Under the pieces are notes generated by a model. That model did no database searches and was not told the DNA's origin. It worked only from the letters and a program-made list of their open reading frames with translations. A program made the translations under genes and the position numbers. A stretch of DNA of 64,000 nucleotides, taken from an uncultured Clostridium sp. Lineage in GTDB: Bacteria > Bacillota > Clostridia > TANB77 > CAG-508. Within the stretch, counting starts at the first letter, position 1; every line of letters begins with the position of its first letter. The stretch covers positions 1,580-65,579 of the forward strand of contig URZW01000007.1 in the NCBI GenBank assembly GCA_900552555.1, read 5' to 3'. This document shows, one piece after another, positions 1 to 57,127 of the stretch.

Positions 1-336
1 AACTCCTGTCCATAATACTTTCCAAATAGACCTCTACAAGTTTATTTTATCATTTAAATTCATTTTTTATTCGAGGATAAACACCCTAATTAAAAATATA
101 GTTTTATAAAATACCCACCATTCCTAAAACAAAAATGGCTTTGTTTCCTACTTTGTTATAACACCCTTACCAAATCAGTAGGCTATTTGGTTCGGATGAC
201 GCCGCAAACTAGGCAGCGTAAGCTAATTCTTCATTGTTAGCGTTTATTTTTAGTTTCTCGTTTATTTAAGTGGCCAACGAGAATCCACTACTTGCTATCT
301 ATTTTTCTGGTAATATGTCGAAACCTTTACATCCCC
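1..336 (-). ncRNA. ssrA: tmRNA (SsrA), 3' end cut by window edge
   Basis: The reverse complement from 336 reads GGGGATGTAAAGGTTTCGAC, the canonical tmRNA 5' end. The internal tag frame GCT AAC AAT GAA GAA TTA GCT TAC GCT GCC TAG (241..209) encodes ANNEELAYAA*. The reverse complement of 1..11 (GGACAGGAGTT) looks like the start of the T-arm. Confidence 0.9.
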
Positions 337-5097: not shown

Positions 5098-6888
5098 ATG
5101 GATAAAAAGAAAAATAGCAAAGATAACAAAAAAATATTGATATCATCAATTGCTTTGATTGCATTAGTTGTAATTTTGGCAGGAATAGCTATTTATTATA
5201 TGAGCAAAAATCAAAGTAAAGATGATAAAACATTAGCATATACAGATTTAATAAAAGAAATGTCATATGGAAATATAGAAAAAATTGAAATGACAGTAGG
5301 AAGTACATCTGTAAAAGTAAAAATGAAAAATGTAGATGAAGAAAAAAAATCAGTAGTTCCAAATACGGAAGCATTTATTGAATTAGTACAGCAAAAGGTA
5401 GCAGAAGGAAATGAAATAGAATTAATACAAAAACCCAAAAGTGTTGTGACACAAATTTCATCAACATTATTTGCATTACTTCCAACAATAATAATGGTTG
5501 CATTATTTGTAATGATTTTTAAAATGCAAGGTTTGGGAGAAAAAGGTCAAGTATATGATGATACAGAAAGAAAAACAAAAATAAAATTTAAAGATGTTGC
5601 TGGATTAGATGAAGAAAAAGAGGAATTAATAGAAATAGTTGATTTCTTGAAGAAACCTGAAAAATTCAGTAGAATGGGTGCTAAGATTCCAAAAGGTGTT
5701 TTGTTATATGGAAAACCTGGAACAGGTAAAACATTAATAGCAAAGGCAATTGCTGGTGAAGCAGATGTGCCATTCATATCAATGAGTGGTTCAGAATTTA
5801 TTGAAATGTTTGCTGGACTTGGTGCTTCAAGAGTTAGAAAATTATTTGAAAAGGCAAGAAAATTATCACCTTGCATAGTATTTATAGATGAAATAGATGC
5901 AATAGGAGCTAGAAGAACGTCAAACAGTGGTGCAGAAACAGAAAATAACCAAACATTAAACCAATTATTAGTTGAGATGGACGGTTTTAGTTCAGAGGAA
6001 ACGATAATAGTATTAGCTGCAACAAATAGACCTGAAATGCTTGATAAAGCTTTATTGAGACCAGGAAGATTTGATAGACAAATAACAATTCCAGTTCCTG
6101 ATTTAAAAGGAAGATTGGAAATTTTAAAAATTCATGCTGAAGATAAAAAATTGGCTGAGGATGTTAACTTGGAAAGCATTGCAGAAGATACAGCAGGATT
6201 TACAGGTGCAGAACTTGCCAATATTTTAAATGAAGCGGCAATTATAGCAACAATTAATAAACATGATGAAATAGAAAATTCTGATATAGAAGAAGCAGTT
6301 AAAAAGGTAACAGTAGGACTTGAAAAGAAAACAAGAGTATATTCAGAAAAAGATAAAAAATTAACAGCATACCATGAAGCGGGACATGCAGTTGTAAGTA
6401 GATATTTACCAACACAAACAGATGTAAAAGAAGTATCTATTATACCAAGAGGTGTTGCTGGTGGATATACAATGTATAAATCTGACGAAGATAAATATTA
6501 TATATCAAAAACAGAAATGAAAGAAAAATTGGTTGCATTACTTGGTGGTAGAGCTGCTGAAAAATTGGTTTTAGATGATATTTCAACAGGTGCTAGCAAT
6601 GATATAGAGGTTGCAACAAAAATAGCAAGAGAAATGGTTACAAAATATGGTATGAGTGACAACCTAGGACCAATTGATTTCCAAGGTAAAGAACAAAATG
6701 ATATGTTTGTTTTTGGTGAAAATATTGGTGATAAAATTGGGGCAGAGGTTAAGTCATTAATTGATGAGGCATATGTTAATGCTCAAAAATTGTTAATTGA
6801 ACATAGAGATAAATTAGATGCTATTGCTCAAACATTACTTGTTCAAGAGAAGATAAATGAACAAGAATTTAATAAAATTTTTGAATAA
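5098..6888 (+). CDS. ftsH: ATP-dependent zinc metalloprotease FtsH (paralogue 1)
   Basis: Contains an N-terminal TM segment, Walker A GKPGTGKT, Walker B IVFIDEIDA and the zinc motif HEAGHAVV. Confidence 0.92.
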   Translation: MDKKKNSKDNKKILISSIALIALVVILAGIAIYYMSKNQSKDDKTLAYTDLIKEMSYGNIEKIEMTVGSTSVKVKMKNVDEEKKSVVPNTEAFIELVQQKVAEGNEIELIQKPKSVVTQISSTLFALLPTIIMVALFVMIFKMQGLGEKGQVYDDTERKTKIKFKDVAGLDEEKEELIEIVDFLKKPEKFSRMGAKIPKGVLLYGKPGTGKTLIAKAIAGEADVPFISMSGSEFIEMFAGLGASRVRKLFEKARKLSPCIVFIDEIDAIGARRTSNSGAETENNQTLNQLLVEMDGFSSEETIIVLAATNRPEMLDKALLRPGRFDRQITIPVPDLKGRLEILKIHAEDKKLAEDVNLESIAEDTAGFTGAELANILNEAAIIATINKHDEIENSDIEEAVKKVTVGLEKKTRVYSEKDKKLTAYHEAGHAVVSRYLPTQTDVKEVSIIPRGVAGGYTMYKSDEDKYYISKTEMKEKLVALLGGRAAEKLVLDDISTGASNDIEVATKIAREMVTKYGMSDNLGPIDFQGKEQNDMFVFGENIGDKIGAEVKSLIDEAYVNAQKLLIEHRDKLDAIAQTLLVQEKINEQEFNKIFE

Positions 6889-6890
6889 TA

Positions 6891-6928
6891 AAAAGCTGTC
6901 CAAAATAAATCTTTTGGATAGCTTTTTA
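6891..6928. terminator. Bidirectional terminator hairpin
   Basis: AAAAGCTGTCCAAAA-TAAATC-TTTTGGATAGCTTTT. Confidence 0.7.
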
Positions 6929-6930
6929 AT

Positions 6931-7161
6931 TTACAGTACGGCGGAAATTGTTAAGTTTAACAATTTCTCGTATAATTTTTTTGACCCCTCAACCGAAGGG
7001 AGTATTGCAGTATTTGTGTCGTAACTAAGTTCTCCTTTCAACTCTGCAATATATTTGCAGATAAGTGACATGTTTGGAGAAAACACATCATAGCCACAAC
7101 TTATAGTGGTTGCAATTGGTGTGTCTTTTACTTTAATCTTGAATTGATATGGTGTCTTCAT
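6931..7161 (-). CDS. Hypothetical small protein (76 aa)
   Basis: Its own promoter on the minus strand is TTGACT-17nt-TAATAT. GC is locally higher. I recognise no family. Confidence 0.4.
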   Translation of the reverse strand: MKTPYQFKIKVKDTPIATTISCGYDVFSPNMSLICKYIAELKGELSYDTNTAILPSVEGSKKLYEKLLNLTISAVL

Positions 7162-7243
7162 ATAAAACTGCCTGCCTTTCTTTTTGGTGCATATGTTTTT
7201 AACAACAATAATATATTACCAAATTTTAGGCAAAAAGTCAAAT

Positions 7244-8671
7244 TTACATAATTAACAATTCTCTGATAGCTCTACAATAAATTTCATAAGCTAATAACAA
7301 ATTATCAATAGAAATAAATTCATCAGTTTGATGGCACATATCTTTTTGACCAGGTAAATTTGCTCCAAAAGAAACAAAATTATCAAAAGCACGAGCATAA
7401 GTAGCACCACCAATAGCAATAGGTTCTGCGTTAGAGTTAGTAACATCGTTATAAATTTTGCAAAGAGTTTTTACCAAAAATGAATCTTTTGGAATATGTA
7501 AAGGATTCATTTTTCCAGCAAGTTCACAACGAATGTCACTATACTTTTTACTAACTTCTGTAAATTTATCGGCTATAAAATCAAAAGTAGTATTAATAGG
7601 AACTCTTAAATTAAATCCGATTTTTAATTCGTCATTTTTAAAATAAAATTTACCAACATTTAAAGTAAGTGAACCGGACTCGTCAGGAACATTGATGCCT
7701 AATTTATCTCCATTATAATCAAGTCCAATATATTGTGTAAATAAATCTAATAAAGGTATAACAATATTATAATTTTTAAATAATTTATTTAAAACAATTA
7801 TTAAATGTGATATCGCATTTATACCTAAATCAGGATGAGCAGCATGTGCTTGAATACCATGAGATATTATTTTTAATTGATTGTTATTCAAAATTTCAAT
7901 ATCAATTTTAAAAGAAAGTTTAGAAGCTGTATCTTTTATAAAAGATGTTACATCATTTATGTTGATATTGTTTTTTACTGAAATTATACAACTACAATAT
8001 TTTGGTACTACATTTAGCGGATTATTATTGCAGTTAATATCACTTAAAACAATATCTTTATTTTTAAAAGTAGAATAATCCATAATTAAAAATGGAGAGA
8101 TAAGGCCTTTTTCGGCATATATACAAGGAAAATCAGCATCAGGACTAAATCCTATTGAAGGAATTTCTTCATGTTCTTTATAATAATTAATACATTTCCA
8201 ATCTCTTTCTTCATTAAGTCCTAAGATTAATCTAACTCTTTTATTTATATTGATATTGTTTTCAGAACAATAGTCCATAACTGCTTTCATGGCGTATAGA
8301 CTAGCTATAACAGGGCCTTTGTCATCAATTGCACCTCTACCATAAATTTTATTATCTGCAATATGTGCTTCGAATGGAGGGTAAGTCCAGTTTTCACCTT
8401 CAGGTACTACATCTAGATGACCAACAATTCCAATTAGTTCAGTGCCTTCTCCAAATTCAATATAACCACAATAGCCGTCAATATTTTTGGTTTTAAATCC
8501 AAGTTTTTTTCCTAAATTTAGTGTGTATTCAAGGGCTTTTATGGTGTTTTTTCCAAATGGTTCGCTGGGGTTATTAGATTCTGAGTGAACACTTGGAATT
8601 TTGATTAATTCTTGCAAGTTTGTTATAAGTTCGTCTTTCTTTAAATATTTTTCAAACATATTATCATACAC
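7244..8671 (-). CDS. pepV: M20-family dipeptidase PepV-like
   Basis: The GHLDVVPEG..W..PPF motif, a length of 475 aa, and the catalytic and lid domain layout fit PepV. Confidence 0.85.
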   Translation of the reverse strand: MYDNMFEKYLKKDELITNLQELIKIPSVHSESNNPSEPFGKNTIKALEYTLNLGKKLGFKTKNIDGYCGYIEFGEGTELIGIVGHLDVVPEGENWTYPPFEAHIADNKIYGRGAIDDKGPVIASLYAMKAVMDYCSENNININKRVRLILGLNEERDWKCINYYKEHEEIPSIGFSPDADFPCIYAEKGLISPFLIMDYSTFKNKDIVLSDINCNNNPLNVVPKYCSCIISVKNNININDVTSFIKDTASKLSFKIDIEILNNNQLKIISHGIQAHAAHPDLGINAISHLIIVLNKLFKNYNIVIPLLDLFTQYIGLDYNGDKLGINVPDESGSLTLNVGKFYFKNDELKIGFNLRVPINTTFDFIADKFTEVSKKYSDIRCELAGKMNPLHIPKDSFLVKTLCKIYNDVTNSNAEPIAIGGATYARAFDNFVSFGANLPGQKDMCHQTDEFISIDNLLLAYEIYCRAIRELLIM

Positions 8672-23986: not shown

Positions 23987-25612
23987 ATGTCAACTTGTCT
24001 TGGATTGTATATAGAAGAAAACCTAATTAAATATGCAAAAGTTTCAAAAGAACATGACCAAATAAAAGTCGAAACATTTGGTGTAAAGTTTTATGATGAT
24101 TTAGATAAAGTTATAAAACAAATAGTTGAAGAAACATATAGTTATAAAACACCAATTAGCATAAACTTATCAGAAGAAATGTACAATTATTTTGATGTGT
24201 TTGCAATGCTAAGTAAAAAAGACTTACCAAAAGCAATCAAAACAGAATTTGAAGCATATTGTGGAGATAAAAATTACAATCCAAACGTATTTGAAACAAG
24301 ATATGCGATAACACCAAATACACAAAATAAGGAAAAATTAAAAGTAATACATATAAGTGAAAACAAAATAGAATTAAACAAAGTATTACAAAGATTTAGT
24401 TCTTACAAATTACAGGGAATTGTACCTGTATCAATGTCAATATCAAGTGTGACTAAATTTGATGAAAAGGAAAATTGCTTAATTGTAAATATAGAAGCAA
24501 ACACAACAGTAACAACAATAATTGACCAAAATATTTATGATATAAATAAAATAGATGTGGGAAGTCAAGAAATATTAGACAAAATTAATTTAAAAGAAAA
24601 TTCATATCAAAAAGCATATGAAATTTGTAAAGAAACAACAATTTATACATCAGAGGGTAAAGAGTTAACAAATGAAGAAACAAGTTATTTAGAAGACATG
24701 ATGCCAACATTATATGAAATAGTTGGAAGTATAAGAAAAATAATAAATGAAAGTTTAGATAAAATAGAAAAAGTGTATATTACAGGAACAGGTGCTTTAA
24801 TTAACAATATAGATTTATATTTTGAAGAGTATTTAGAAAATGTAAGATGTGAAATATTAAAACCTGGATTTGTAAAAATATCACCTGATGTAAATATAAA
24901 AGATTATGTAGAAGTTAATTCGGCTATATCTTTAGCATTAAGTGCTTTAGGACAAGGAATATCAGGAATGAACTTCAAAAAAAATACATTGATGGATAAA
25001 TTGCCAGATATACTAAAAATGGAAGTTGGTAGTAAAAAGAAATCACCAGTTACAGCATCAAAAAAATCTTTCAAATTTGTCACAATGGACTTTAATATAC
25101 CATTAGATAAAATAGAAAAAGGAATGCTAAGAGGTGTTGCGGGATTATTGGTTCTTTTCTTTGTATATTGTGGATTTTCAACAATGATATTAAAACAAAT
25201 AAATCTAAAAAATGATGAGGCTAATAAATCTATACAAGATACAAATTCACAAATTTCATTAGTAGACAAAGATATTCAAAGCATACAAAATAAAACAAGT
25301 GATTATACAACAAAAATAAACAATTTAAAACAAATAAATGAACAAATTGAAGAAAATAACAAAACAAAAAAAGCTATACCAAATTTATTAAATAGACTAA
25401 TGTATGTTATGCCTACAGAGGTACAGCTAACATCAATTAAAAATACATCATCTACACATATAGAAATACAAGCACAATCATCAAGCTATGCAGATCTGGG
25501 ATATTTGGCAGCTAGTATAAAAACAAATGGTATACTTACAAATGTTATAACTACTTCTGGACAAAAAGATAACAATATAGTAACAATAAAGATAGAAGGT
25601 GATTTGCCATGA
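23987..25612 (+). CDS. pilMN: Type IV pilus assembly protein, PilM-PilN fusion
   Basis: An actin-like N-terminal domain is followed by a TM segment (GVAGLLVLFFVYCGFSTMIL) and a coiled-coil PilN-like tail. Fused pilMN genes are reported for Clostridia. Confidence 0.7.
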   Translation: MSTCLGLYIEENLIKYAKVSKEHDQIKVETFGVKFYDDLDKVIKQIVEETYSYKTPISINLSEEMYNYFDVFAMLSKKDLPKAIKTEFEAYCGDKNYNPNVFETRYAITPNTQNKEKLKVIHISENKIELNKVLQRFSSYKLQGIVPVSMSISSVTKFDEKENCLIVNIEANTTVTTIIDQNIYDINKIDVGSQEILDKINLKENSYQKAYEICKETTIYTSEGKELTNEETSYLEDMMPTLYEIVGSIRKIINESLDKIEKVYITGTGALINNIDLYFEEYLENVRCEILKPGFVKISPDVNIKDYVEVNSAISLALSALGQGISGMNFKKNTLMDKLPDILKMEVGSKKKSPVTASKKSFKFVTMDFNIPLDKIEKGMLRGVAGLLVLFFVYCGFSTMILKQINLKNDEANKSIQDTNSQISLVDKDIQSIQNKTSDYTTKINNLKQINEQIEENNKTKKAIPNLLNRLMYVMPTEVQLTSIKNTSSTHIEIQAQSSSYADLGYLAASIKTNGILTNVITTSGQKDNNIVTIKIEGDLP

Positions 25613-26915: not shown

Positions 26916-27134
26916 ATGAAACAACAAAAAGGTATTACTTTAGTAGCATTAGTTATCACAATAATCATTCTTTTAATATTAGCTGGTATATCAATAGCAA
27001 CATTACAAGGAAGTGGATTATTCAGTAAAACAAAAGAGGCTAAAAATGCTTCAGAAAATGCTCAAATAAAAGAAAATTCAACACTAAATGACTATGAGTA
27101 TCAAATGAATACATATTTAAATGATGTTAAATAG
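26916..27134 (+). CDS. Short type IV pilin-like protein (72 aa)
   Basis: The prepilin-like leader is MKQQKG|ITLVALVITIIILLILAGISI. A strong AAGGAGGG RBS precedes it and its own terminator follows. Confidence 0.75.
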   Translation: MKQQKGITLVALVITIIILLILAGISIATLQGSGLFSKTKEAKNASENAQIKENSTLNDYEYQMNTYLNDVK

Positions 27135-27241: not shown

Positions 27242-28075
27242 ATGAAAAGTAAAAGTAAGGAAAAAGCAATGGAAATATTTTTTTATATTATAATTTTTAT
27301 GATTGGAATAACATTTGGCAGTTTCTATACTCTAGCAGTATATAGAATACCAAAAGGACAAGATATAACTCATACACATTCATATTGCCCAAAATGTAAC
27401 CATAAATTAAATATATTTGACTTAATACCAGTATTTAGTTATATATTTTTAGGTGGAAAATGTAGATACTGTAAACAAAAAATAAGACCAAGATATTTAA
27501 TTTTAGAAACAATATCAGGCTTAGCTTTTGTGGGATTTGCATACTTAATGGGGCTAAGTGTATATAATTTGGATGCAATAAAAATAACTGAATATGTATT
27601 TTTTGCTTTATATTTTACATTTATTATTTTAATGGCAGGAATAGATAAAGAATATAAAACAATAAATAAACCAGTATTAATGTATGGAGTAATAATTTCA
27701 ATTATGTATATATTATATCTATACATAATAGAAAAAAATAGTATATATAGATATGGTATATATTTACTAGCTTTTGCAGTACTATTATTACTAGACACAA
27801 TTAAACTAAGAAAAAAAGCACAAGATAGTTATACATACTCAATATTGATGGTTATTATAATAATGGCAATATTTACAGGAGAATATGCAACAATAAATGC
27901 AATAATTTCAACATTACTTATGATAGCAATAACAATACTTGTAAAAAAATTAAAACAACCTAAAAGCACAAAAACAACACAACAATATAGCAGTACGATA
28001 AAAATAGGATTATATTTAGCAATAACAAACATTATTTATTTGATTATGGTTTTAGCATATTGTAAATTTATCTAG
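27242..28075 (+). CDS. pilD: Prepilin peptidase (A24 family) PilD-like
   Basis: The N-terminal CPKC..(17)..CRYC zinc module and multi-TM body are present, with the first Asp in AGIDKEY. The expected GxGDxKL motif appears only as LLLDTIKL. Confidence 0.7.
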   Translation: MKSKSKEKAMEIFFYIIIFMIGITFGSFYTLAVYRIPKGQDITHTHSYCPKCNHKLNIFDLIPVFSYIFLGGKCRYCKQKIRPRYLILETISGLAFVGFAYLMGLSVYNLDAIKITEYVFFALYFTFIILMAGIDKEYKTINKPVLMYGVIISIMYILYLYIIEKNSIYRYGIYLLAFAVLLLLDTIKLRKKAQDSYTYSILMVIIIMAIFTGEYATINAIISTLLMIAITILVKKLKQPKSTKTTQQYSSTIKIGLYLAITNIIYLIMVLAYCKFI

Positions 28076-29415: not shown

Positions 29416-31227
29416 TTACTCACCTTCAAAAATTCTTTCAAATTCATCAGCTTCAATTTTCTCTTTTTCAAGTAAAACTGCAGCAACCGCATGTAATTTA
29501 TCAACATGGTCTGTAAGAATTTGTTTAGCTCTGTTATAGCCTTTATCAATAATAGCCTTTGTTTCCTCATCTATTATACCTGCTGTTTCCTCTGAATATT
29601 CTTTAGATTGAGCAAAATCTCTACCCAAGAACACTTCACTTTGATCAGAACCAAGCATTAATGTTCCTATTCTTTCACTCATACCATATTTTGTAACCAT
29701 GCTTCTAGCAATTTTTGTTGCTCTTTCTATATCATTACTTGCCCCTGTTGAAACATCATTTAATATTAATGCTTCTGCAACTCTACCACCTAAAAGAGAT
29801 ACAATATTTTCTTCCATTTCTGTTTTTGACATAAAGTTTTTATCTTCTGTTGGTCTATACATTGTATAACCACCAGCCATGCCTCTTGGTACAATTGATA
29901 TTTGATGTACTGGGTCTTGTGTTTCTAAGTAATGACTTACTACTGCGTGACCGGCTTCATGGTATGATACAAGTCTATTTTCTTTTTCACTTCTAACTCT
30001 TGTTTTCTTTTCAGGTCCCATAGTTACTTTAACCATAGCATCTTCAATTTCTTTCATTCCAATTTCAGTTAGATTTCTTCTTGCTGCAAGTAATGCCGCT
30101 TCATTTAATACATTTTCTAGGTCCGCACCTGCAAATCCAGATGTATTTTTTGCAATTACTTTTAAGTCAACATCGTCTGCTAATCTTTTCTTTCTAGAAT
30201 GAACCTCTAATATTTGCTCTCTTGCTTTAACATCAGGAGCTCCAACAACTATTTGTCTGTCAAATCTTCCTGCTCTTAATAAGGCTTTGTCTAATACATC
30301 AGGTCTATTTGTTGCTGCTAAAACGATAACACCTTCATTATCTGAGAAACCATCCATTTCAACTAATAATTGATTTAATGTTTGTTCCCTTTCATCATGT
30401 CCACCGCCTAGGCCAGCACCCCTTTGACGTCCAACTGCATCAATTTCATCTATAAATATGATACATGGTGCATTTTTCTTAGCTTGTTCAAATAAATCCC
30501 TAACTCTTGAAGCACCAACACCAACAAACATTTCAACAAAGTCTGAACCACTTATAATAAAGAATGGTACACCAGCTTCACCTGCAACTGCTTTTGCAAG
30601 TAATGTTTTACCAGTTCCTGGTTGACCTACTAATAAAACACCTTTTGGTATTCTTGCTCCCATATCTGTAAATTTCTTTGGATTTCTTAAAAATTCAACA
30701 ATTTCTTGTAATTCTTCTTTTTCTTCGTCAACACCTGCAACATCGTCAAAAGAAATTTTATTTCTGTCTGCTGGTGTCATCATTCTAGCTTTGCTCTTAC
30801 CAAATGACATTGATTTTCCACCATTTTGTCCATTTGCTGCTCCACCCATCATAAAGAACCAGAATATAAAGAATATTATCAAAATTCCAAATGGTGTAAG
30901 TAAACCTAATATAATTGATAATACTGATTCAGAACTTTCTTCTAAAGTGAATGCTCCATTTTTAATAAATTCATCAGTATAATTCATAAAGTTTTCCATA
31001 TTTGGAATATTTACTTGTTTTTTTATTTTATCATCAGATAGTTGAACCGTTGCAGAAGTTCCATCTGCATCTATAACTATTGACTCTACTTTTCCCTCAT
31101 TTATCTTCGCAATTAATTCTGAATATTTTAGTTTTGTATTTGTGTTTGTCATTATTGATGACAACAATACTATAAATATTACTCCGATTATTAGCCACAT
31201 TGCTAATGTTTTAATTCCGTTTTTCAA
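29416..31227 (-). CDS. ftsH: ATP-dependent zinc metalloprotease FtsH (paralogue 2)
   Basis: [17 protein letters not shown] and HEAGHAVV motifs are present. It lies downstream of tilS, as is canonical. Confidence 0.92.
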
Positions 31228-32520: not shown

Positions 32521-32573
32521 TTGACTATCATTCCTTTCTGTCAATAGGGACGCCCCTTTTTGACAACTTTTCT
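32476..32573 (+). repeat. Two tandem REP family C units (identical 38-mers, 60-nt period)
   Basis: TTCTGTCAATAGGGACGCCCCTTTTTGACAACTTTTCT occurs at 32476..32513 and again at 32536..32573. Confidence 0.9.
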
Positions 32574-33309
32574 ATTTTAATTCTTTTGCTATATTTCGTA
32601 CAGTTTCTCTTCCTACATTTATGTATATAGATATTTGCCTTAATGAAAGACCATAATACTCTTTTAACATATTAATTATCTCTTTTAAATTCTTTCTCTC
32701 ATTTTTCAAAGTATCAAAATTAATATTATTAATTTTCATATACTCTTCTATAGCATTTTTTATCTCTACTTCTTTTTCTTCTTCTATTTCTAAAAAATTT
32801 TCTTTCTTATCTAAAATATCTTCTTTTATCAATAGCCCATTGATATTTCGTTGAATTTCTTCCATATTTTTTATATATTCGTTGTAACTTGAATACTCAT
32901 ATTCAGATGCTAACCTACAAATACCTGCTTTTACAGGATTATTATGTATATAATTTATACATGTATACAATTGTTTTTCCGAATAAATTACCTGACTTTT
33001 ATATCTATCTCTAAATACATAACCTACCCTGTTATATTTTTTATTGTAATACATCGCATATAAAGTATTTACCTTATGCATAAAACGACTTAAGCATTCT
33101 ATATATTCTTCTTTTATCAATATGTGAACATGATTATCCATGATACAATATGAAACAATATAAACATCAATTTCCTTTTTTACTTTATTAATAAATTTTA
33201 AATATTGCCTTTTATCTTCAACCTCATTAAGAATATACTCCTTATTTATTCCTTGAACCACGATATGATAAAAAAACATATTAGTACATTTTCTTGGACC
33301 TCTTGCCAT
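32572..33309 (-). CDS. REP-associated tyrosine transposase (RAYT)-like HUH/Y1 protein with C-terminal HTH
   Basis: The HUH motif lies in IMDNHVHILIKE and the Tyr motif in GYVFRDRYKSQVI. The C-terminal tail is LSLRQISIYINVGRETVRNIAKELK. An AGGAGG RBS precedes ATG 33309. Confidence 0.75.
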   Translation of the reverse strand: MARGPRKCTNMFFYHIVVQGINKEYILNEVEDKRQYLKFINKVKKEIDVYIVSYCIMDNHVHILIKEEYIECLSRFMHKVNTLYAMYYNKKYNRVGYVFRDRYKSQVIYSEKQLYTCINYIHNNPVKAGICRLASEYEYSSYNEYIKNMEEIQRNINGLLIKEDILDKKENFLEIEEEKEVEIKNAIEEYMKINNINFDTLKNERKNLKEIINMLKEYYGLSLRQISIYINVGRETVRNIAKELK

Positions 33310-33408
33310 ATTTTCCTCCTTACTTCTTAAGGTCCCACAAAATTTATCCCCCAAAATGTATTTACATAATACTATATTCTTTTATAAAAGTCAATCATAA
33401 AAGTAAAA

Positions 33409-37656: not shown

Positions 37657-38256
37657 TTATTTAATTCCATAAATATGTGATATATAGTGTCCTGTCCAAC
37701 CGTATAGATTTTCATAAGCAATATAAAAAGTATTTTTATTTATAAATCCAACATTCATTCTACTAGAATACGAAGAATTCGCAATTGCAGACATTTCTAT
37801 TGCTGGATAACCATAATTTTCCTTAATTAAATCTATCGGAAATAATGTCGAATGATATTCTGGAATTGTTGAACCAGTAAGATTTATAGCCGTTATTATT
37901 AAAACAAATTCATAATCCTCAATATTATAATTATTATTTGATTTACATCCGCCTGAACTTTGTTTATCCACTGTATTAACTGAGGTATTATATTTTCCTG
38001 ACCATAATAAATCTTTATGCGTAGCAAAAGACTCTCTATTACTTGCAACTGTATTAAAATCATCGATCTGAGATACATAATTATCTAATGTTTGATTTTC
38101 CTCTAATTGAGCATTTTGACTTTTTTCTTTAGCCTCTTTGGCCTTTTCAAAAATCCCTGTTTGTGTTAACACCATTATTGAAATTCCCGACAAAATAAGC
38201 AAAATTATTATTGTTACTACTAATGCAACCAATGTTATTCCTTTGTTTTCTTTCAT
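37657..38256 (-). CDS. Pilin-like protein with an unknown ~130-aa C-terminal domain
   Basis: The leader is MKENKG|ITLVALVVTIIILLILSGISI. It is followed by GIFEKAKEAKEKSQNAQLEENQTLDNY, which is paralogous to the pilin at 26916. Confidence 0.7.
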   Translation of the reverse strand: MKENKGITLVALVVTIIILLILSGISIMVLTQTGIFEKAKEAKEKSQNAQLEENQTLDNYVSQIDDFNTVASNRESFATHKDLLWSGKYNTSVNTVDKQSSGGCKSNNNYNIEDYEFVLIITAINLTGSTIPEYHSTLFPIDLIKENYGYPAIEMSAIANSSYSSRMNVGFINKNTFYIAYENLYGWTGHYISHIYGIK

Positions 38257-40244: not shown

Positions 40245-40904
40245 CTAATTTTCAAAAACTATTCCATCAATACAATTCTCATATATAAATTGTTTGATTT
40301 TTTCTTTTTCATTCGTAGTATAAAACTCTGATAGTAATGTTGTAAATTCTTGCAATTTATCATCCGGAATTTTTATTATTCCACTACCATTTTGAATCAT
40401 AATTTTATTAGCGCAAATTGTACTAGTTCTTTTATTGCCATCCCAAAACAATTGATTTCTCATGCCATACAACATATATTCAATTGCTCTTTCTGTTGGA
40501 TTTTCAATTTCTAATATTTTTGTAATATCTTTTTTAACCTTTTCTCCATTTGGAATTTCTGGAATATAACTAGTTCCTGTAATTTCAACCTTTCCATTGC
40601 GTAATTGTCCCCATACTATACTTTCATTTCTTGCAACAAATTCATTTACTTTGCTTATAAATTCTAAATTGAAATCCAAGTCTATATTATTTATTACATA
40701 TTTCCAAGCATCTCTTAAATTTAAAATACATTGTATTTCATCAATTTTCAATTCTGGTACATTAACTCCTTCTAAAATTGTTTTAGTTTGAGGAAATGTT
40801 ATATTAAGTCCTTCAAGCCTTGCATTTGAATATATATTATCTACTAGATTTCTTTTTGCTAAAAATATATTTTGTTCTTGTGTCATATTATATTTATTTT
40901 CCAT
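40245..40904 (-). CDS. Fic/Doc-like protein with a non-canonical active-site motif
   Basis: QLFWDGNKR (40428..40454) aligns to the Doc-type HxFxDxNKR motif, with Gln in place of the catalytic His. Confidence 0.55.
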   Translation of the reverse strand: MENKYNMTQEQNIFLAKRNLVDNIYSNARLEGLNITFPQTKTILEGVNVPELKIDEIQCILNLRDAWKYVINNIDLDFNLEFISKVNEFVARNESIVWGQLRNGKVEITGTSYIPEIPNGEKVKKDITKILEIENPTERAIEYMLYGMRNQLFWDGNKRTSTICANKIMIQNGSGIIKIPDDKLQEFTTLLSEFYTTNEKEKIKQFIYENCIDGIVFEN

Positions 40905-41267: not shown

Positions 41268-42686
41268 CTATCTTTTATTTTCTCTTTCTAAATTCTCTGC
41301 ATCTAAATTCATTTCTTTTTTAACATTTTCAATAATTTGCTCTTGTGGTAATTTATCTTCATTTTCTTTTAATTCTCTTAACAACTTGTCTCTGACTTCG
41401 TTTTCAGTAAATACTTCTTTAATTTGTTCTTCTCCCTGTTCATTTTCATAATTTAATATTTCTTGGACAAAATATTCTAAATCAAAATGTTCATGAGTTT
41501 CAGTATTTTCATCACCATCAAAGTCTTTAACATCTTTAGGCGTACAACCCTCATCAGTATGCTCTTGTATTTCATCTTGAACTTTTTCTTTTTGATACAT
41601 ACCTTTATTTCTATTCATTATTTCTCTAGTTTCAATTGGAATAACTGAAGTTTGAGAAGTCTCTATTTGAATTCCAACATTTTCATTTTCTTCTATTGTT
41701 TTTTGATATAAAAACATATTAACATTTCCCATATCATTTTCACAGCCAATACTCATTCCGTTAGATTTTCTAGTATATACAGACATATCTTTATTATCTC
41801 TAGTTGCAGTACTATTAGCTCTTATCTTTGTTTGCTCTCTTGTTGCACCATTTCCAACAGTATTATCCATTTCAAATTCGTCATTTAAAACCTTTGCAGT
41901 ACCATCACTTTTTACACCTACCAAAGAATATGTCGTATTATTTCTTTTTTCTCCTGATGTAATTTCATCAACATTTTCTGAATATACTACATACATATTT
42001 TCATACCCATTCAAATCTAATCTTTTACCTAAAGTCTCTTTTCCATCGACTTTTTTATTTAAATCAACTTTTTGTATTCCATTAACTTTTATTTTGTCAG
42101 CCTGTTTTTTAGATAAAGTATTTTTCTTTTTTTCTTTTCCGTCATTTTCTTGTTCTTTTTTCTCAGAAAGTCCCTCTAATTCTTGTTTATCCATCTCCTC
42201 TAGCAATTTTTCAACTTCATTCTCTTTCACTTTTCTTCCTAGATGAGCAGTTAAAACTTCAGCTATTTCTTTAGTTTGCAATTTGTTCATAGAATTATTT
42301 TCAATTTCTTCTTCTGGTATTTTTTCTAGTAAATCTTTTATTGCTCCCATCTTATCTGGTTCAGAAGTAGCAAATGTTTCTCCATATAATATTTCTCCAT
42401 TTCCTAATTCACCAGCAACACATTTATCTCCTAAATAATAGCTTTTTTGTTCAGTAACTCTTTCTTTACCATCTTCGCTTTTTTCTATTATTTCTTTTTC
42501 AACTATAAATACAACGTCAGCCGTTTCTTGTCCATTTATTTTGTCTTTCCATTCTGCTGAGCCAACAAATTTTATATCTTTTATTTTTATTTTTTTGTTT
42601 TCTGTTTGTTGCTTTAAAATATCATTTTCTATTATATCTCTAAAGCTTTCTTCTAATTTTAATATTTCTCTTTCTTTTTGGTTCAT
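41268..42686 (-). CDS. Highly acidic E/K/N-rich hypothetical protein (472 aa)
   Basis: It is a long ORF with an RBS and has neither a signal peptide nor a TM segment. I recognise no family. Confidence 0.6.
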   Translation of the reverse strand: MNQKEREILKLEESFRDIIENDILKQQTENKKIKIKDIKFVGSAEWKDKINGQETADVVFIVEKEIIEKSEDGKERVTEQKSYYLGDKCVAGELGNGEILYGETFATSEPDKMGAIKDLLEKIPEEEIENNSMNKLQTKEIAEVLTAHLGRKVKENEVEKLLEEMDKQELEGLSEKKEQENDGKEKKKNTLSKKQADKIKVNGIQKVDLNKKVDGKETLGKRLDLNGYENMYVVYSENVDEITSGEKRNNTTYSLVGVKSDGTAKVLNDEFEMDNTVGNGATREQTKIRANSTATRDNKDMSVYTRKSNGMSIGCENDMGNVNMFLYQKTIEENENVGIQIETSQTSVIPIETREIMNRNKGMYQKEKVQDEIQEHTDEGCTPKDVKDFDGDENTETHEHFDLEYFVQEILNYENEQGEEQIKEVFTENEVRDKLLRELKENEDKLPQEQIIENVKKEMNLDAENLERENKR

Positions 42687-42890
42687 ATAAATACCTCCTA
42701 TATAATATTATACTCCAAAATCCAATAATTTCAAGGGATTTGTAACTATTCTTGCAAAATGTGATTTCATAAACACATACAATTTTATGTTTTATATAAG
42801 TATATTTTAAATCTAAAAATAACTTTTTTATCCAGAACAAAAGCGAACATTAATAACATAGGAAGTTCGGAGAACTTTCCTATAATATAA

Positions 42891-42933
42891 AAAAAGAGGA
42901 ATTTTCTGTGATAATTTCTCAATTCCTCTTTTT
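42891..42933 (-). terminator. Terminator after the 766-aa pilin-like gene
   Basis: AAAAAGAGGAATT...AATTCCTCTTTTT has a 13-bp stem. Confidence 0.75.
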
Positions 42934-42936
42934 AAT

Positions 42937-45237
42937 TTATTCACTTAATTGATACTTACTCATCCAATAGCCTGTCAATTGTTTTTCTCCATTATCTCCC
43001 CAAGTAAATGCCTCTGGTACTTTATAACCTGTTGAACAATTATCATTAGTAGTATCAATAGTTATAAAATTAACATCTGTTCTTTTATTATCTAAACTTT
43101 CATTTTCTCTATCTTCTAAAATTCTATACTCATACCTTGGAATCCATACGAAATAGCTCTCTGTTCCATTTGCTATTGTAACAATGTTTGCCCATTTTCT
43201 ATTACTATAGTCATACCAATTATCTGGAACTTTTTTCTTTATTGATATTCTTTCTTTTTCAGAGCCATCATCATTATAAATCACATAAAATGTGTTATTT
43301 TTATCAAATCCTGTTAAATCTGGTGCATATGCATCTATTGTTTTTATTTTCTTTGTTATTGCTCCTACATAAGCATTTGTTGATGCATTTCTTGCTATAA
43401 TATTAATTGTATATGTTGCATTCATATTAAGTCCAGTATAATTATATTTTTCAGTTGCACTTGTTCCATCATGAACTTTATTTCCATTCAAGTAATATTC
43501 ATATTTTAATGATACTGGTGTTGAATTGCCCCCTGTATCTGTTGTAGTCAATACTTTTCCTGTTATATCTCCAACTCTAATAATATTTCCGCCAGCAGAT
43601 ACCTGAGCATTTATTTTTGCATTTGTTTCCTCACTAGATAATTGATATTTAGCCATCCAATAACCTGTCAATTGTTTCTCTCCATTATCGCCCCAGGTGA
43701 ATGCCTCTGGTATTTGATAACCAGCATCAGTTTTTGTATCTGTTCCTTTTATAAATTTTATAGAAGATGTCTGTGTATTTTGATTTAAACTATATTGATA
43801 ACGAGGAATCCATACATAATAACTTTCCAAGCCATCATTTCTTGTAACTATATTAGCCCAATTTCTTGTACCATAATCATACCATTCTTCTGGTGCACTT
43901 TGGCTAATTGGAATTTCGTTATGTTCATTTCCATTCCCATCCCAATACACATAAAATGTAGTATCTTTATCAAAACCTGTTAAATCCGGTGGATTAACAT
44001 CTGCAACTTCATATAATTTTGTCATGCTTCCAATAATACAACCATTTAAATCTAATGCCGTTACCGTTAATGTTTTATTTCCTTTTGCTAGTCCTGTAAT
44101 TGTATAATCTTCAGGATTTTTACTTTCATGTAGAACATTTCCATTTACAGCATAAGTATATTTAGCAATTGTTTTATCTGTATTTGTTGATATTTCTTGT
44201 ACTTTTATTGTTGTCGCAGTAGCTACAGTTTTATAATCAATTGTATAATTGTCTCCTTTTTGGAATTCTGATAATTGATATTTACTCATCCAATATCCTG
44301 GTATTGGTGTTTTATTTGAATCATCATCTCCCCAAGAAAACGCTTCTGGTAATTGATATCCTTGAGATTGTAATGTAGTCCAATCTGTTTTTTCATCTGT
44401 TTCAGGATTTTTGTAACTATTGTCAATGTCAACAAATTTTACATCTGTTCTTTCATTTCCAGTAACAGATTTTTCATCATCTACCTTATATACATATCTT
44501 GGAATCCATACATAATAACTTGCAATTCCTTCTGATTCAACATAAATGTTAGCCCACTTTTGATTTTTATAGTCATACCAGTCATTATCTGGTTTTTTAC
44601 TTATCCAACTGCCAGCAACTAAATTTCCATTTACGTCTTTAACATATCTAGTATTTGATTTTACAAAGCCTTCATTTAATTGTGGAGTACATAAGTACAC
44701 TCCGTTTACCAATTCATAATTACCATTAACAACTTTAATTCCACTATTACTATCACCACTGTCATATTCCCAAATAGCTATTCCCATTTGTTGACACCAT
44801 TTTACTTGGTTGGCATTATTTTTTATTTTACTTTGTGAAACATAATATAACTTACTTTCATGAACTATTACATACTCTTCTTCTTTTTTTCCGACTTTTT
44901 TTAATAGTTTTCTAATGTCTTGTACGTTACTTTCGTCTACTTCTAATTTTTCGTCTTCAATTATATTTTTCAGAACTTTTCCTGCATATATTTTTATTTC
45001 TTCATTACTGTCTAAATTATTAACTTTTTGTTCTGTTAAATACATATTAAACTCTTCTGCAATTTCTGACATCTTTGTTTTGAATGACGCTTCTTTTGCT
45101 CTTTGTATTAGTCCATTTTCACCAAATATTCCTCTTATTGATACCATTGCTAATATTAACAATGCAACAATTGTTATAATTAAAGCTATTAAGGTTATTC
45201 CTTTTTTGTTTTTTAGTTTTAACCTATTTTCTTTCAA
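42937..45237 (-). CDS. Giant pilin-like protein with a triplicated C-terminal module and two Ig/Fn3-like spacers
   Basis: The leader is NKKG|ITLIALIITIVALLILAMVSI. The three modules span aa ~185-324, 414-534 and 637-766. Each carries WYDY..WANI..SY(Y/F)VWIPRY and GY(Q/K)xPEAF(S/T)WGD..GYWM(S/A)KYQLS. Confidence 0.8.
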   Translation of the reverse strand: MKENRLKLKNKKGITLIALIITIVALLILAMVSIRGIFGENGLIQRAKEASFKTKMSEIAEEFNMYLTEQKVNNLDSNEEIKIYAGKVLKNIIEDEKLEVDESNVQDIRKLLKKVGKKEEEYVIVHESKLYYVSQSKIKNNANQVKWCQQMGIAIWEYDSGDSNSGIKVVNGNYELVNGVYLCTPQLNEGFVKSNTRYVKDVNGNLVAGSWISKKPDNDWYDYKNQKWANIYVESEGIASYYVWIPRYVYKVDDEKSVTGNERTDVKFVDIDNSYKNPETDEKTDWTTLQSQGYQLPEAFSWGDDDSNKTPIPGYWMSKYQLSEFQKGDNYTIDYKTVATATTIKVQEISTNTDKTIAKYTYAVNGNVLHESKNPEDYTITGLAKGNKTLTVTALDLNGCIIGSMTKLYEVADVNPPDLTGFDKDTTFYVYWDGNGNEHNEIPISQSAPEEWYDYGTRNWANIVTRNDGLESYYVWIPRYQYSLNQNTQTSSIKFIKGTDTKTDAGYQIPEAFTWGDNGEKQLTGYWMAKYQLSSEETNAKINAQVSAGGNIIRVGDITGKVLTTTDTGGNSTPVSLKYEYYLNGNKVHDGTSATEKYNYTGLNMNATYTINIIARNASTNAYVGAITKKIKTIDAYAPDLTGFDKNNTFYVIYNDDGSEKERISIKKKVPDNWYDYSNRKWANIVTIANGTESYFVWIPRYEYRILEDRENESLDNKRTDVNFITIDTTNDNCSTGYKVPEAFTWGDNGEKQLTGYWMSKYQLSE

Positions 45238-45264: not shown

Positions 45265-45954
45265 TTATATTCCTGTTCCTACAACGATGCAAGCACGAGA
45301 AGCATACTTTTTATTTTTGGCCGCTGCTCCTTGATACTGTCCACCATTATACCCACTAAATGAAAATATACTATCTTTGTAACCACGTAAAATTGAAACA
45401 TGATTATCATAATCAATCCAATCATTAGTTATCGTATTTGTACTACCATGCCAATTTTGTGTTTCCAATATAGCATCTCCTAGTTTTGCTTTATATGCTT
45501 CTACTTCATATATATCTTTATATCTATTACTTGCTTTTCTAAAATTTTGGTCAGTAATTGTTGGACATACTGCAGATGTTCTTTCACCATTTAAATTAAT
45601 AACTATACCAGATGAATTTCCTGTTGTAGTTTCTCCAACATTTATTTTATTAGGATTACCATAAGCTGAAGCCGAAAGAATAGCCATTGCTCCATATTCA
45701 GTATTCTTTTCCATATGAATATCTAAATCCGTTGCCCCACTTGTTAAATTCGTAGTATTAATTGTATCTATCCTACCAAGTGTTCCTCCCATTTCCTGCA
45801 TTTGCCTTATTTGTAATACCCAATCACCTTGCAATTTAACTGCAGGTGTTCCTCCATTAGACTGCAAAGCAGCATTTGATTTATTTGGCATAATTAGGGC
45901 AGACAAAGCCACACCTGTAACCATAATTGTTAAAATCTTATTTTTTATTTTCAT
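45265..45954 (-). CDS. Secreted hypothetical protein (SUMF1/FGE-like C-terminal motifs by eye)
   Basis: AGGAGG RBS plus ATG 45954. The signal peptide is MKIKNKILTIMVTGVALSALIMPNKSNA. Motifs are HMEKNTEYGAMAILSASAYG, TTGNSSGI, ILRG..SIFSF and SRACIVVG. Confidence 0.65.
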   Translation of the reverse strand: MKIKNKILTIMVTGVALSALIMPNKSNAALQSNGGTPAVKLQGDWVLQIRQMQEMGGTLGRIDTINTTNLTSGATDLDIHMEKNTEYGAMAILSASAYGNPNKINVGETTTGNSSGIVINLNGERTSAVCPTITDQNFRKASNRYKDIYEVEAYKAKLGDAILETQNWHGSTNTITNDWIDYDNHVSILRGYKDSIFSFSGYNGGQYQGAAAKNKKYASRACIVVGTGI

Positions 45955-46243
45955 AACTTCCTCCTTTTTTTCTACTGTACTTTTATTATTTTTTCCAAAT
46001 TCCGGCATTTAAAACCTATATACATAAATTTTATAATCCCTCCTTTTCTTTTGTATAATTTTATAAATTTAAATACGATTTTTATCAATTATAATTTTAT
46101 CATTAATGTCTTTTTCTGTAAATATTTTTTGCGATTTTTGTCAATTTATAATAGATAATTATCAAATATAAAATCATTCACAAAACAAGTAAAAGATTAT
46201 ACTATAATAAATAAGTAAATAAAAAAAGAAGGAGACTTAAAAT

Positions 46244-47790: not shown

Positions 47791-48789
47791 TTATTTTAAT
47801 TTTTCAATCTCATCATCTCTTAATCCTGTTATTTCTGATATTTCTTTTTTAGAAAGATTTTTATTTAATAATTTTTTTGCAATTTCCTTTATTCCCTCAA
47901 TTTTTCCTTCAACCTTACCCTGTTTTCTACCATTCATAAAAATCTCTCTATTTTCTTTTTGTATCATTTCAAAGACAGCCATCATCGCTACATCACCACC
48001 TTCCTTATCTAAATTTTTTAAAATTTTATTAGTTTCATTTTCACCAATTTTAATTCTAATTATTTTATTTAAAATATTTCTAAACATTTCCTTAGTTTCT
48101 ATAGGATAAGTTTGTTTATCATTATTAATTATCTCCGCTATTTTTTCCAAATAATTTACAGTATCAGTTACTGTTTTTGTTTTTTCTATTAACATTGCTT
48201 TTGTATAAAAAGATTTTGATTTCAATAATTGTTCTTCACTATATTCATTAACATCAACTATATTAAACTTTGCAAATTGAATCTCCTCAATATTATCTAA
48301 TCTTTCCTGAATATCACTTATATATGTCCCTGCATTCCATCTTCTATTACCAGTATATAATACTATCGGATATACAATAGGCAACTTATAATTTTTATGT
48401 CCATATCTTTTTCTATTAATTGCATTTTCCATTATCAAAACCTCATATTTAAGTATTCTAAACGGCATTGTATAATCAATTTTTGTTTGATGCTCTATTA
48501 AAAAGAAAATATTTTTATTTTTTAACTTATATATAATATCAGATTCTTGATTATTAAAGTTCATATCAATAAAACTACTATTATATTTTTCTAAATCTTT
48601 TTCTAATACTTGAACATTAAATATATCTTTTATTAATTTTGATACCTCTCCATTATTATTAAATATTGTTCTAAATGTTTTATCATGTTCATTATTTACT
48701 TTATTTTTAATTAGTTCATATTTCTCTGATTCTTCTCTAATATCACAATTATTATATACTTTCTCTTTTTTTATATAAGTTATATACAT
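47791..48789 (-). CDS. Rpn-family recombination-promoting nuclease / PD-(D/E)XK putative transposase
   Basis: HDKTFRTIF and IFFLIEHQTKIDYTMPFRILKYEVLI are typical of the YhgA/Rpn family. Confidence 0.75.
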   Translation of the reverse strand: MYITYIKKEKVYNNCDIREESEKYELIKNKVNNEHDKTFRTIFNNNGEVSKLIKDIFNVQVLEKDLEKYNSSFIDMNFNNQESDIIYKLKNKNIFFLIEHQTKIDYTMPFRILKYEVLIMENAINRKRYGHKNYKLPIVYPIVLYTGNRRWNAGTYISDIQERLDNIEEIQFAKFNIVDVNEYSEEQLLKSKSFYTKAMLIEKTKTVTDTVNYLEKIAEIINNDKQTYPIETKEMFRNILNKIIRIKIGENETNKILKNLDKEGGDVAMMAVFEMIQKENREIFMNGRKQGKVEGKIEGIKEIAKKLLNKNLSKKEISEITGLRDDEIEKLK

Positions 48790-56471: not shown

Positions 56472-57092
56472 ATAAAATTAAAACAAGCACTAAGGCTTGC
56501 CATTAATTTCTAAATTAAAATATAGATGGTAAAAATCTAAGTAAATTTTACGGTTTAGGTCTGGTTGAATTTCTCTACTTCCCGCTTAGCATTACTGCTA
56601 GAACCGTTTCCGTTTAAGGGAACCAGCTAAATTTATTTTAGCCACCAGATCGCCACTCAAATCCGTACCTTAATCCCCAGATTTTCAAGCTTTTGATAAA
56701 GCAAACATTCTAGAAGTTTTCCTTGACATACTTTTGCAAACTTACTAGTCTTTTTTGCAAGTATAATTTCATAATCCAGAATAAAAATTATTTGGCCGAA
56801 CAATTTTCATTCCCGTCAAATTAATCCCAATACACTCACTCGAGACAGGCTACACTATGTATTTTGTGTCTTGGCACTCAACATAGGTTTAACTTAAATT
56901 TTTCTATTTAAGCCTCCGCGAAACTAGGGAATCACATATATGCCATTATATATTACCCTAACCCCTTTACTCCCTGGTTACACACAAAACTGGCATTTCG
57001 CGCACAAACAAGAAACTTCAACGATGTGCCCTTTAGTGGATTTTTAGCCCCACCCTCGTAAGTTTAAGTACGACTAGAATAATGCACCATCA
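56472..57092 (-). ncRNA. Large structured ncRNA candidate (~620 nt; OLE-like by size and context)
   Basis: It lies within a 923-bp gap without ORFs, where GC is clearly above the local background. It has its own promoter and a 3' hairpin CAAGC-CTTAGT-GCTTG plus a T-tract. Many local helices and one long-range helix are visible (TCTGGTGG...CAACCAGA). Confidence 0.6.
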
Positions 57093-57098
57093 ATTAAT

Positions 57099-57127
57099 AT
57101 TATAACTTATTTCTAGAAATATTCCAA
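57099..57127 (-). promoter_or_regulatory. Promoter of the ncRNA
   Basis: The minus strand reads TTGGAA (57127..57122), a 17-nt spacer, then TATAAT (57104..57099). Confidence 0.6.

Follow-up and report, generated by a model that had tools for sequence, protein, structure and literature searches.

What does a gut Clostridium build at its surface with a protein that starts like a pilin, repeats one module three times and stops on the opening motif of a lectin-like domain? The question is raised by a 766-amino acid (aa) open reading frame (ORF) on a 64,000-nucleotide (nt) stretch of DNA from an uncultured Clostridium sp. (assembly GCA_900552555.1, contig URZW01000007.1, positions 1,580 to 65,579 of the forward strand), which we refer to as the window. 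The window is a low-GC (~27%) bacterial chromosome segment with ffh, trmD, rimM, gdpP, dnaB, alaS and spoVAD, and its closest public sequences are metagenome-assembled genomes (MAGs) of uncultured gut Clostridia of the ‘Clostridium sp. CAG:575’ type. The gene directly upstream of the ORF, which we call the partner gene, appears to encode the remainder of the lectin-like domain. We give about even chances to the interpretation that the locus is a two-gene surface adhesin, an anchored scaffold with docking modules for lectin-like heads.

The ORF occupies 42937..45237 on the minus strand and starts at a TTG codon, with a ribosome-binding site (AGGAGAG) 4 nt upstream of the start. An earlier note on this DNA had described three copies of a motif string, two immunoglobulin (Ig)/fibronectin type III (Fn3)-like spacers and an end exactly at KYQLSE; translation and motif counts bear this outline out, and the module coordinates given there translate to the sequences described. 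WYDY, WANI, VWIPRY, PEAFxWGD and GYWMxKYQLS each occur three times in constant order (WYDY at aa 220, 452 and 674; GYWMxKYQLS at aa 314, 525 and 756). Reading along the minus strand, a leader peptide, MKENRLKLKNKKG (aa 1-13, 45199..45237), ends in Gly at -1 of a putative prepilin-peptidase site, G|ITLIAL, and is followed by a pilin-like N-terminal module (aa 14-185, 44683..45198) in which a hydrophobic helix extends into a long helix and then a small alpha/beta domain. Module 1 (aa 186-324, 44266..44682), a WYDY-WANI-VWIPRY beta domain that ends PEAFSWGD...GYWMSKYQLSE, is joined by Fn3/Ig-like spacer 1 (aa 325-414, 43996..44265) to module 2 (aa 415-534, 43636..43995). Fn3/Ig-like spacer 2 (aa 535-636, 43330..43635) then leads to module 3 (aa 637-766, 42940..43329), and the protein stops directly after its GYWMSKYQLSE (stop codon 42937-42939).

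The AlphaFold model of this scaffold has a mean predicted local distance difference test score (pLDDT) of 80.6. Both spacers are predicted to be all-beta (pLDDT ~80-90) and match Fn3 arrays in Foldseek (probability 1.0): spacer 1 is modelled as a seven-strand beta-sandwich with Fn3 arrays as its top matches, and in spacer 2 the model and Foldseek agree with a sub-threshold Pfam fn3 match (13.1 bits, aa 578-619). The fn3 family itself (PF00041) is present in homologues of the 766-aa protein. The region ahead of the modules, which the earlier note had called a ~170-aa linker, is instead predicted to be a long N-terminal helix (aa 17-73, modelled as helices at aa 17-38 and 43-73) and a folded alpha/beta domain of helices and strands that reaches aa 183, with pLDDT mostly 75-88 and two blocks at ~61-65. 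With the full scaffold model as query, Foldseek found nothing in PDB and BFVD but Fn3 arrays, and phage tail proteins at a template-modelling (TM) score of ~0.1, and was uninformative about the module.

The modules matched no Pfam, NCBIfam, PHROG or PDB sequence family. Searches of the target and the partner against Pfam, NCBIfam and PHROGs yielded only sub-threshold N_methyl and fn3 matches, and PDB sequence searches with the 766-aa protein, a module profile and a partner profile gave no significant match. The module profile, built from 18 diverse modules, nevertheless matches 2,646 clusters (50% identity) with 1 to 7 modules per protein, drawn from gut metagenomes of humans, mice and rabbits; the sole name found for them at NCBI is ‘hypothetical protein’. 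Within every module conservation is highest in the tail motif, where G, Y, W, K, Y and Q are invariant, and in 232 of 265 retrieved family members the stop codon follows within 12 residues of G[YFI]WxSKY[EQK]. We searched phage and plasmid collections (tblastn) and scanned IMG/VR and found no relatives of the module family, on which ground we excluded a phage or plasmid gene. The searchable literature held no relevant description of the leader, of the module motifs or of an FGE-sulfatase and pilin combination (FGE, formylglycine-generating enzyme).

A 247-aa ORF (45265..46008, minus strand) constitutes the partner gene; 27 nt separate it from the target, which lies downstream on the same strand. 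Translation probably begins in fact at Met19 (nt 45954), since most homologues start MKxKxKIL, and the product carries a signal peptide (...PNKSNA|ALQSNGG, cleavage site by eye) with no anchor motif and no Pfam match. The interval that separates the two genes has no terminator-like site on its coding strand. The partner family has 656 homologues, again with a Pfam match in none. Of 27 loci that allow the test, 22 have one to three tandem copies of a partner homologue directly upstream of the module gene. In the other five, the domain is fused in cis (two proteins), the partner is found 1.9 kb upstream (one locus) or downstream (one locus), or, in L007, no partner gene occurs within the 14-kb locus sequence.

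Natural fusions connect the two proteins, and in every fusion in cis the module's KY[EQ]xS end is directly followed by the partner-like domain. A 595-aa protein from a Bacilli MAG (L038) has one module and then a partner-like domain, and in L029/P0250 module 1 and a partner-like domain are followed by three bare modules. Module 3 of L014 is fused in frame to a partner without a signal peptide (KYQISNANS-ILQAN...), at a junction 3-4 residues or fewer from the predicted signal-peptide cleavage site. The L014 fusion gene (L014:7418-9901) appears frameshifted near the pilin N-terminus (6904-7497 versus 7418), which may be an assembly error or mark a pseudogene. We also observed four giant proteins with four or five modules each, P0337 (2338 aa), P0355 (4340 aa), P0336 (3713 aa) and P0329 (4516 aa). 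In P0337 and P0355, which have four and five repeats, a partner-like motif stands ~58-90 aa after every module, and these proteins therefore constitute a 1:1 module-to-domain repeat in cis.

The C-terminal half of the L038 protein, used as a query, retrieved 3,366 proteins. Typical members of this fused family are unannotated proteins of ~500 aa from gut Bacilli and Clostridia, with a GFTLIELL leader (Glu at position +5, Glu5, present), one module and an FGE-like domain. When we aligned our profiles to the family with hhalign, the module profile matched columns 131-266 (probability 99.7, E value 3.9e-27) and the partner matched columns 306-457 (probability 97.5, E value 5.8e-12). Judged from these alignments, module and partner correspond to successive parts of one ~500-aa pilin family.

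It is through this family that the system connects to a recognised fold. PF03781 (FGE-sulfatase) matches 13 of 33 fused-family members at E <= 0.01, and five exceed the gathering score (24.2-24.8 versus 23.3 bits), which makes the assignment of the family's C-terminal domain to the FGE-sulfatase, or FGE-type C-type-lectin (CLec)-fold, domain marginal. The fused-family profile also matches PDB entry 5vf4 (E value 2.6e-4). This entry is TaqVP, the variable protein of a Thermus aquaticus diversity-generating retroelement (DGR), of the FGE subtype of the C-type-lectin fold (PMC6328139). In the alignment, HPAF..GiWvGKFe, the counterpart of PEAFxWG..GYWMSKYQLS in the window, falls on TaqVP residues 58-77, ahead of the CLec core, and HmmkNsEWgaVayL, the counterpart of the partner's HMEKNTEYGAMAIL, lands at the core start. 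In the partner, the remainder of the domain reads DIHMEKNTEYGAMAILSASAYG ... TTGN ... GDAxxETxxWHGS ... SRACIVVGTGI. Neither target nor partner matches PF03781 directly, and the partner profile found no FGE-type or CLec-fold entry in PDB (sole match insignificant, E value 0.26); the homology to the FGE-sulfatase/CLec family is transitive, by way of the two hhalign matches above. On this evidence the domain appears to be split just after the pre-core segment, with what follows encoded in trans. The proposal in the earlier note that GYWMxKYQLS corresponds to the start of an FGE-type domain holds through the fused relatives. The note misleads, however, in calling the remainder absent, given the conserved upstream gene.

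One alternative is that module and partner form an FGE/SUMF1-type enzyme, for formylglycine generation or as a related oxidase, and no binding domain. The fused relatives do reach the Pfam FGE-sulfatase threshold, and among the partner's invariant residues are Asp, His and Glu. FGE catalysis, however, requires a Cys pair, and no Cys stands in an invariant or nearly invariant column of the partner alignment, which argues against catalysis of this type. The partner has only a degenerate YDMSGG/NVWEW-type motif, a DGR variable (binding) protein is the nearest relative with a solved structure, and surface display, Fn3 spacers and a region that is hypervariable between strains suit a binding role. 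We therefore regard an enzyme as very improbable.

We propose the following assembly. An atypical prepilin-type N-terminus (a plain membrane anchor in paralogues) would hold the scaffold at the cell surface or in a type IV filament, and the ectodomain would consist of three docking modules with Fn3-like spacers between them. Each module would present the first segment of the FGE-type C-type-lectin-fold domain (PEAFxWG...GYWMSKYQLS), and the upstream gene would supply the rest as a Sec-secreted, anchorless ‘head’ subunit. We infer that the head docks on the module tails, probably non-covalently and at one per module, so that up to three heads per scaffold would rebuild the unit that relatives make in a single chain. 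The hypervariable C-terminal region of the head would determine which ligand is bound, a glycan or another gut surface ligand, and would be swapped between strains. In its most specific form, a split FGE-type lectin-fold adhesin whose hypervariable heads plug in trans into three sockets on a Glu5-less pilin-type or membrane-anchored scaffold, we hold this proposal only tentatively, with less confidence than the general two-gene adhesin.

Several observations weigh against docking. The modules, including the GYWM strand, fold confidently on their own in the AlphaFold model (pLDDT ~83-87), and the partner may thus not be needed. Partner copy number (one to three) does not follow module number, the hhalign alignment of the partner to the fused family spans only partner columns 93-190, and the partner has no Pfam match of its own. 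Modelled alone, the partner reached a pLDDT of 45, too low for a fold search, compared with 80.6 for the scaffold at similar alignment depth. This last result is weak evidence in favour of docking, as it is consistent with an incomplete fold, but the low score may only reflect a shallow alignment of 36 sequences.

On the same observations one could argue that the scaffold is a self-sufficient repetitive adhesin, that the partner is an independent, co-transcribed secreted lectin or enzyme, and that the FGE-like tails are vestiges of a fused ancestor. Confident folding of the modules alone, the mismatch of one to three partner copies with three modules and the partnerless L007 locus are what one would expect of such a protein. 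Yet this account leaves unexplained why no part of any module is better conserved than the tail motif, why stops fall right after it and why fusions constantly place the partner domain directly after it, as well as how an anchorless secreted protein would be retained at a monoderm cell. We consider it unlikely, though well short of negligible, and continue to prefer the docked two-gene adhesin.

The hypervariability of the proposed head was apparent in a comparison with the MAG L001 (region L001:9280-9972), whose scaffold is 97% identical at the protein level. Between the two strains the target gene is almost throughout 0.91-1.0 identical in DNA and the 5' part of the partner gene 0.81-1.0 identical, and identity falls to 0.50-0.61, with indels and sharp bounds, over 45313-45600, the C-terminal third of the partner. 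This hypervariable cassette (~aa 141-236 of the partner, 45313..45600, minus strand) has conserved flanks: 106 of 122 aligned protein positions are identical upstream of it and all of the last 11, as against 40 of 100 within it. Column conservation across the partner family is likewise lowest in the variable segments, at 0.42-0.50 in the cassette and 0.80-0.86 at aa 46-145.

A hypervariable stretch just before a conserved last strand, in a protein whose fused relatives are distantly linked to TaqVP, invites the idea that the partner is itself a DGR target like TaqVP. We found no reverse transcriptase among the 40 window ORFs scanned, the window contains no part of the partner gene twice, hence no template repeat, and the strain differences include indels and are not adenine-specific. 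On the missing reverse transcriptase and template repeat and the mismatch pattern we rejected the DGR hypothesis for this locus, to which we assign next to no probability. The difference between strains therefore appears to be recombinational or allelic variation. The locus also differs by a whole gene: directly after the 766-aa gene, L001 has an extra 500-aa, two-module, membrane-anchored paralogue (L001:12345-13847) that the window lacks (42687-42940). The junction of this difference falls in the last ~60 nt coding for the conserved GYWMSKYQLSE end, which suggests gain or loss of the whole gene by recombination at that motif.

How old is the triplication? From the similarity of the last two modules the earlier note had concluded that the duplication was recent. 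The high DNA identity that it saw is real: DNA repeats join all three modules, and over 84 nt at their 3' ends modules 2 and 3 share 88% identity. At the protein level, however, the modules of the 766-aa protein are only 46-57% identical pairwise, and the protein has at least 1,478 homologues, none bearing a name, among which the three-module arrangement is widely kept. Both module patterns are matched three times, at the same positions, in 103 of the 120 best homologues (51-98% identical); most of the remaining 17 are short of one match only, and nearly all of the 120 end KYQLS[E/N]. Modules at the same position are 60-71% identical across proteins, compared with 47-57% between modules within one protein. 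Residue conservation together with codon bias accounts for the 84-88% DNA identity where modules 2 and 3 end, since identical codons occur at 19 of 26 identical residues where 17.9 are expected from codon usage. A recent duplication or ongoing gene conversion would account for the 88% identity over 84 nt and for an identity between modules 2 and 3 that is slightly higher within a protein (0.57) than between proteins (0.52). It is contradicted by the persistence of three modules in homologues down to ~51% identity, by the closer likeness of same-position modules across species and by the codon counts, and we reject it as scarcely credible; the triplication is old.

We next consider how the scaffold is anchored. 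Its leader, KNKKG|ITLIALIITIVALLILAMV, places Gly at -1 after a short basic stretch and before ~20 hydrophobic residues, as prepilin leaders do, and as displayed, KNKKG|ITLIALIITIVALLILA, it resembles a prepilin signal. Of 94 leaders in the family, 81 have G and 10 have A at -1, 92 have I at +1, and 80 have A at +5, where E never occurs. The geopilin N-terminus gave a weak phmmer match to the N-terminal region of the target.

The window also holds a small set of pilus-type genes. A 72-aa pilin of the same leader class, MKQQKG|ITLVALVITIIILLILAG (26916..27134, plus strand), exceeds the N_methyl cut-off (22.9 versus 21.2 bits) and stands between a gene for a PilN-like (possibly PilM/N) assembly protein (23987..25612, plus strand) and, directly after it, a gene for a 277-aa prepilin peptidase-like protein (27242..28075, plus strand). 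The PilN-like assignment was made from the neighbouring pilin and peptidase genes together with a weak PilN match (21.8 bits, cut-off 22.8). The peptidase-like protein, a candidate processor of the G|ITLIAL leaders, matches the Pfam family A24_N_bact at 102.5 bits (cut-off 23); Pfam recognises this N-terminal domain only and not the catalytic Peptidase_A24, for which candidate Asp residues (GIDKEY, LLDTIKL) can be picked out by eye. PDB searches with the peptidase and the PilN-like protein returned nothing useful. Peptidase, adjoining pilin and PilN-like gene would together provide a cognate processing and assembly set. A motif scan found a third protein with such a leader, G|ITLVAL (199 aa, 37657..38256, minus strand), whose N_methyl score of 17.2 bits is sub-threshold. 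The proteins at 26916-27134, 37657-38256 and 45199-45237 share a K-G|ITL(I/V)AL leader, Ala in place of Glu5 and G(L/I)(F/I)xxxKEA after the hydrophobic helix, and the three look like members of a lineage-wide class of Glu5-less pilins.

The N-terminus could instead be a signal anchor only, uncleaved by prepilin peptidase, in which case the scaffold would be a membrane-tethered surface protein and not a pilus subunit. The 766-aa protein does not reach the N_methyl threshold (PF07963, 13.1 bits versus 21.2) and has Ala at +5, and we saw neither PilB nor PilC among the window ORFs scanned. Ordinary membrane anchors occur on paralogues and on a variant of the gene at the same chromosomal site (L006, described below), and the fused pilin relative P0395 lies among housekeeping genes and not in a pilus operon; all of this weighs against a pilin. 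Against a mere signal anchor stand the G or A at -1, after a basic stretch, in 91 of 94 leaders, the identical leader class on a 72-aa pilin, above the N_methyl cut-off and encoded next to a prepilin peptidase gene, the long predicted N-terminal helix and the canonical GFTLIELL leaders of the fused relatives. We think the signal anchor the somewhat doubtful option; it concerns the anchoring step only and is compatible with either view of the partner. The pilin-like N-terminus put forward by the earlier note thus stands as to class, given the pilin-like set in a window that holds a prepilin peptidase gene, and is weakened by the sub-threshold N_methyl score and the Ala at +5; processing of the 766-aa leader by PilD is plausible.

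The anchor also varies between proteins. In about one-third of homologues, including the 731-aa paralogues and the L006 allele, an ordinary membrane anchor replaces the pilin-like region. The L006 allele (L006:4804-6999) occupies the same chromosomal site, with trmD 98% identical, and encodes a 731-aa protein with its first ~166 aa swapped for a plain membrane anchor; the anchor type has therefore been swapped between close strains. The partner of the L006 allele is only 54% identical to that of the window. The pilin anchor is exchangeable.

The earlier note had also called a pilin anchor with this much cargo unusual. This was overstated: modular pilins with grafted modules occur widely, with over 1,200 modular type IV pilins in 264 architectures, among them PilB and PilC of Streptococcus sanguinis, which carry a vWA module and a lectin module respectively (Raynaud et al. 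2021, PMC8179133), and the same ectodomain occurs here on an ordinary membrane anchor too. The window protein shares with modular type IV pilins a pilin-type leader and helix, grafted C-terminal ligand-binding modules (presumed, in the window), a monoderm host and multi-domain cargo. It differs in a leader that lacks Glu5 and falls below the N_methyl threshold, in a cargo of three copies of an undescribed module that is also found on a non-pilin anchor, and in a presumed binding domain encoded by a separate secreted protein. The fused proteins, with pilin leader, WYDY module and FGE-like domain, are homologous to the window module and partner in the same order, but they are single chains with one module, a GFTLIELL leader with Glu5 and an intact YDMSGGxWE, whereas the window system is split into two genes, has its module triplicated and has gained Fn3 spacers. 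FGE-type CLec proteins (TaqVP 5VF4, TvpA, Mtd; PF03781) are distantly related through the fused family and resemble the window system in the HPAF..GxWxGxF segment ahead of the CLec core, as at TaqVP 58-77, and in a variable region near the C-terminal strand. Unlike them, the window proteins have no direct Pfam or PDB match, no DGR and no conserved catalytic Cys, and their domain is divided between two polypeptides.

Two further systems offer an analogy in logic only, with no relationship in sequence or fold to the proposed docking. In the cohesin-dockerin system of Clostridia cellulosomes, an anchored scaffold with repeated docking sites receives separately secreted, exchangeable subunits, and in chaperone-usher and type V pili the fold of one chain is completed by a donor strand from another. 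Widespread modular pilins (PMC8179133), and FGE-type lectin folds as variable binding scaffolds, are already known. New here are a family of WYDY modules without earlier description, the presence of three copies of the module on a scaffold, a lectin-type domain that appears split between two genes with a hypervariable partner, and a set of pilin-type leaders that lack Glu5. Scaffold and partner together have the look of a two-gene surface adhesin not described before and very common in gut Clostridia.

Other features of the window are recorded here as separate observations. A 472-aa gene just downstream of the target (41268-42686, minus strand) encodes a highly acidic, Lys/Glu-rich protein with no Pfam match; we considered it as a further member of the gene cassette and dropped it, as it is conserved only in four close loci. 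A YhgA-like (Transposase_31) gene lies three genes upstream of the cassette (47791-48789, minus strand), and elsewhere in the window are a gene for an IS200-like Y1 transposase (32572-33354, minus strand), a Fic-domain gene (40245-40904, minus strand) and two FtsH paralogues (5098-6888, plus strand; 29416-31227, minus strand). We also found two structured RNAs. A full-length ornate large extremophilic (OLE) RNA at 56510-57106 (minus strand) scored 351 bits against a gathering score of 50 and lies a few kb from ffh, and a transfer-messenger RNA (tmRNA) gene at 1-336 (minus strand, 126.9 bits) is truncated by the window start.

Even on a conservative reading, the domain boundaries and the partner gene described here can be used to annotate thousands of proteins. 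If split-domain docking is true, gut Clostridia that are abundant but uncultured would have a novel means of building and diversifying adhesins, and there would be a natural case of a lectin-type fold reconstituted from two chains. Heads could then be mixed and matched much as in cellulosomes, so that binding specificity would be altered with the scaffold unchanged. Type IV pilin-like leaders that dispense with the near-universal Glu5 would, in turn, bear on how pilins are recognised and assembled.

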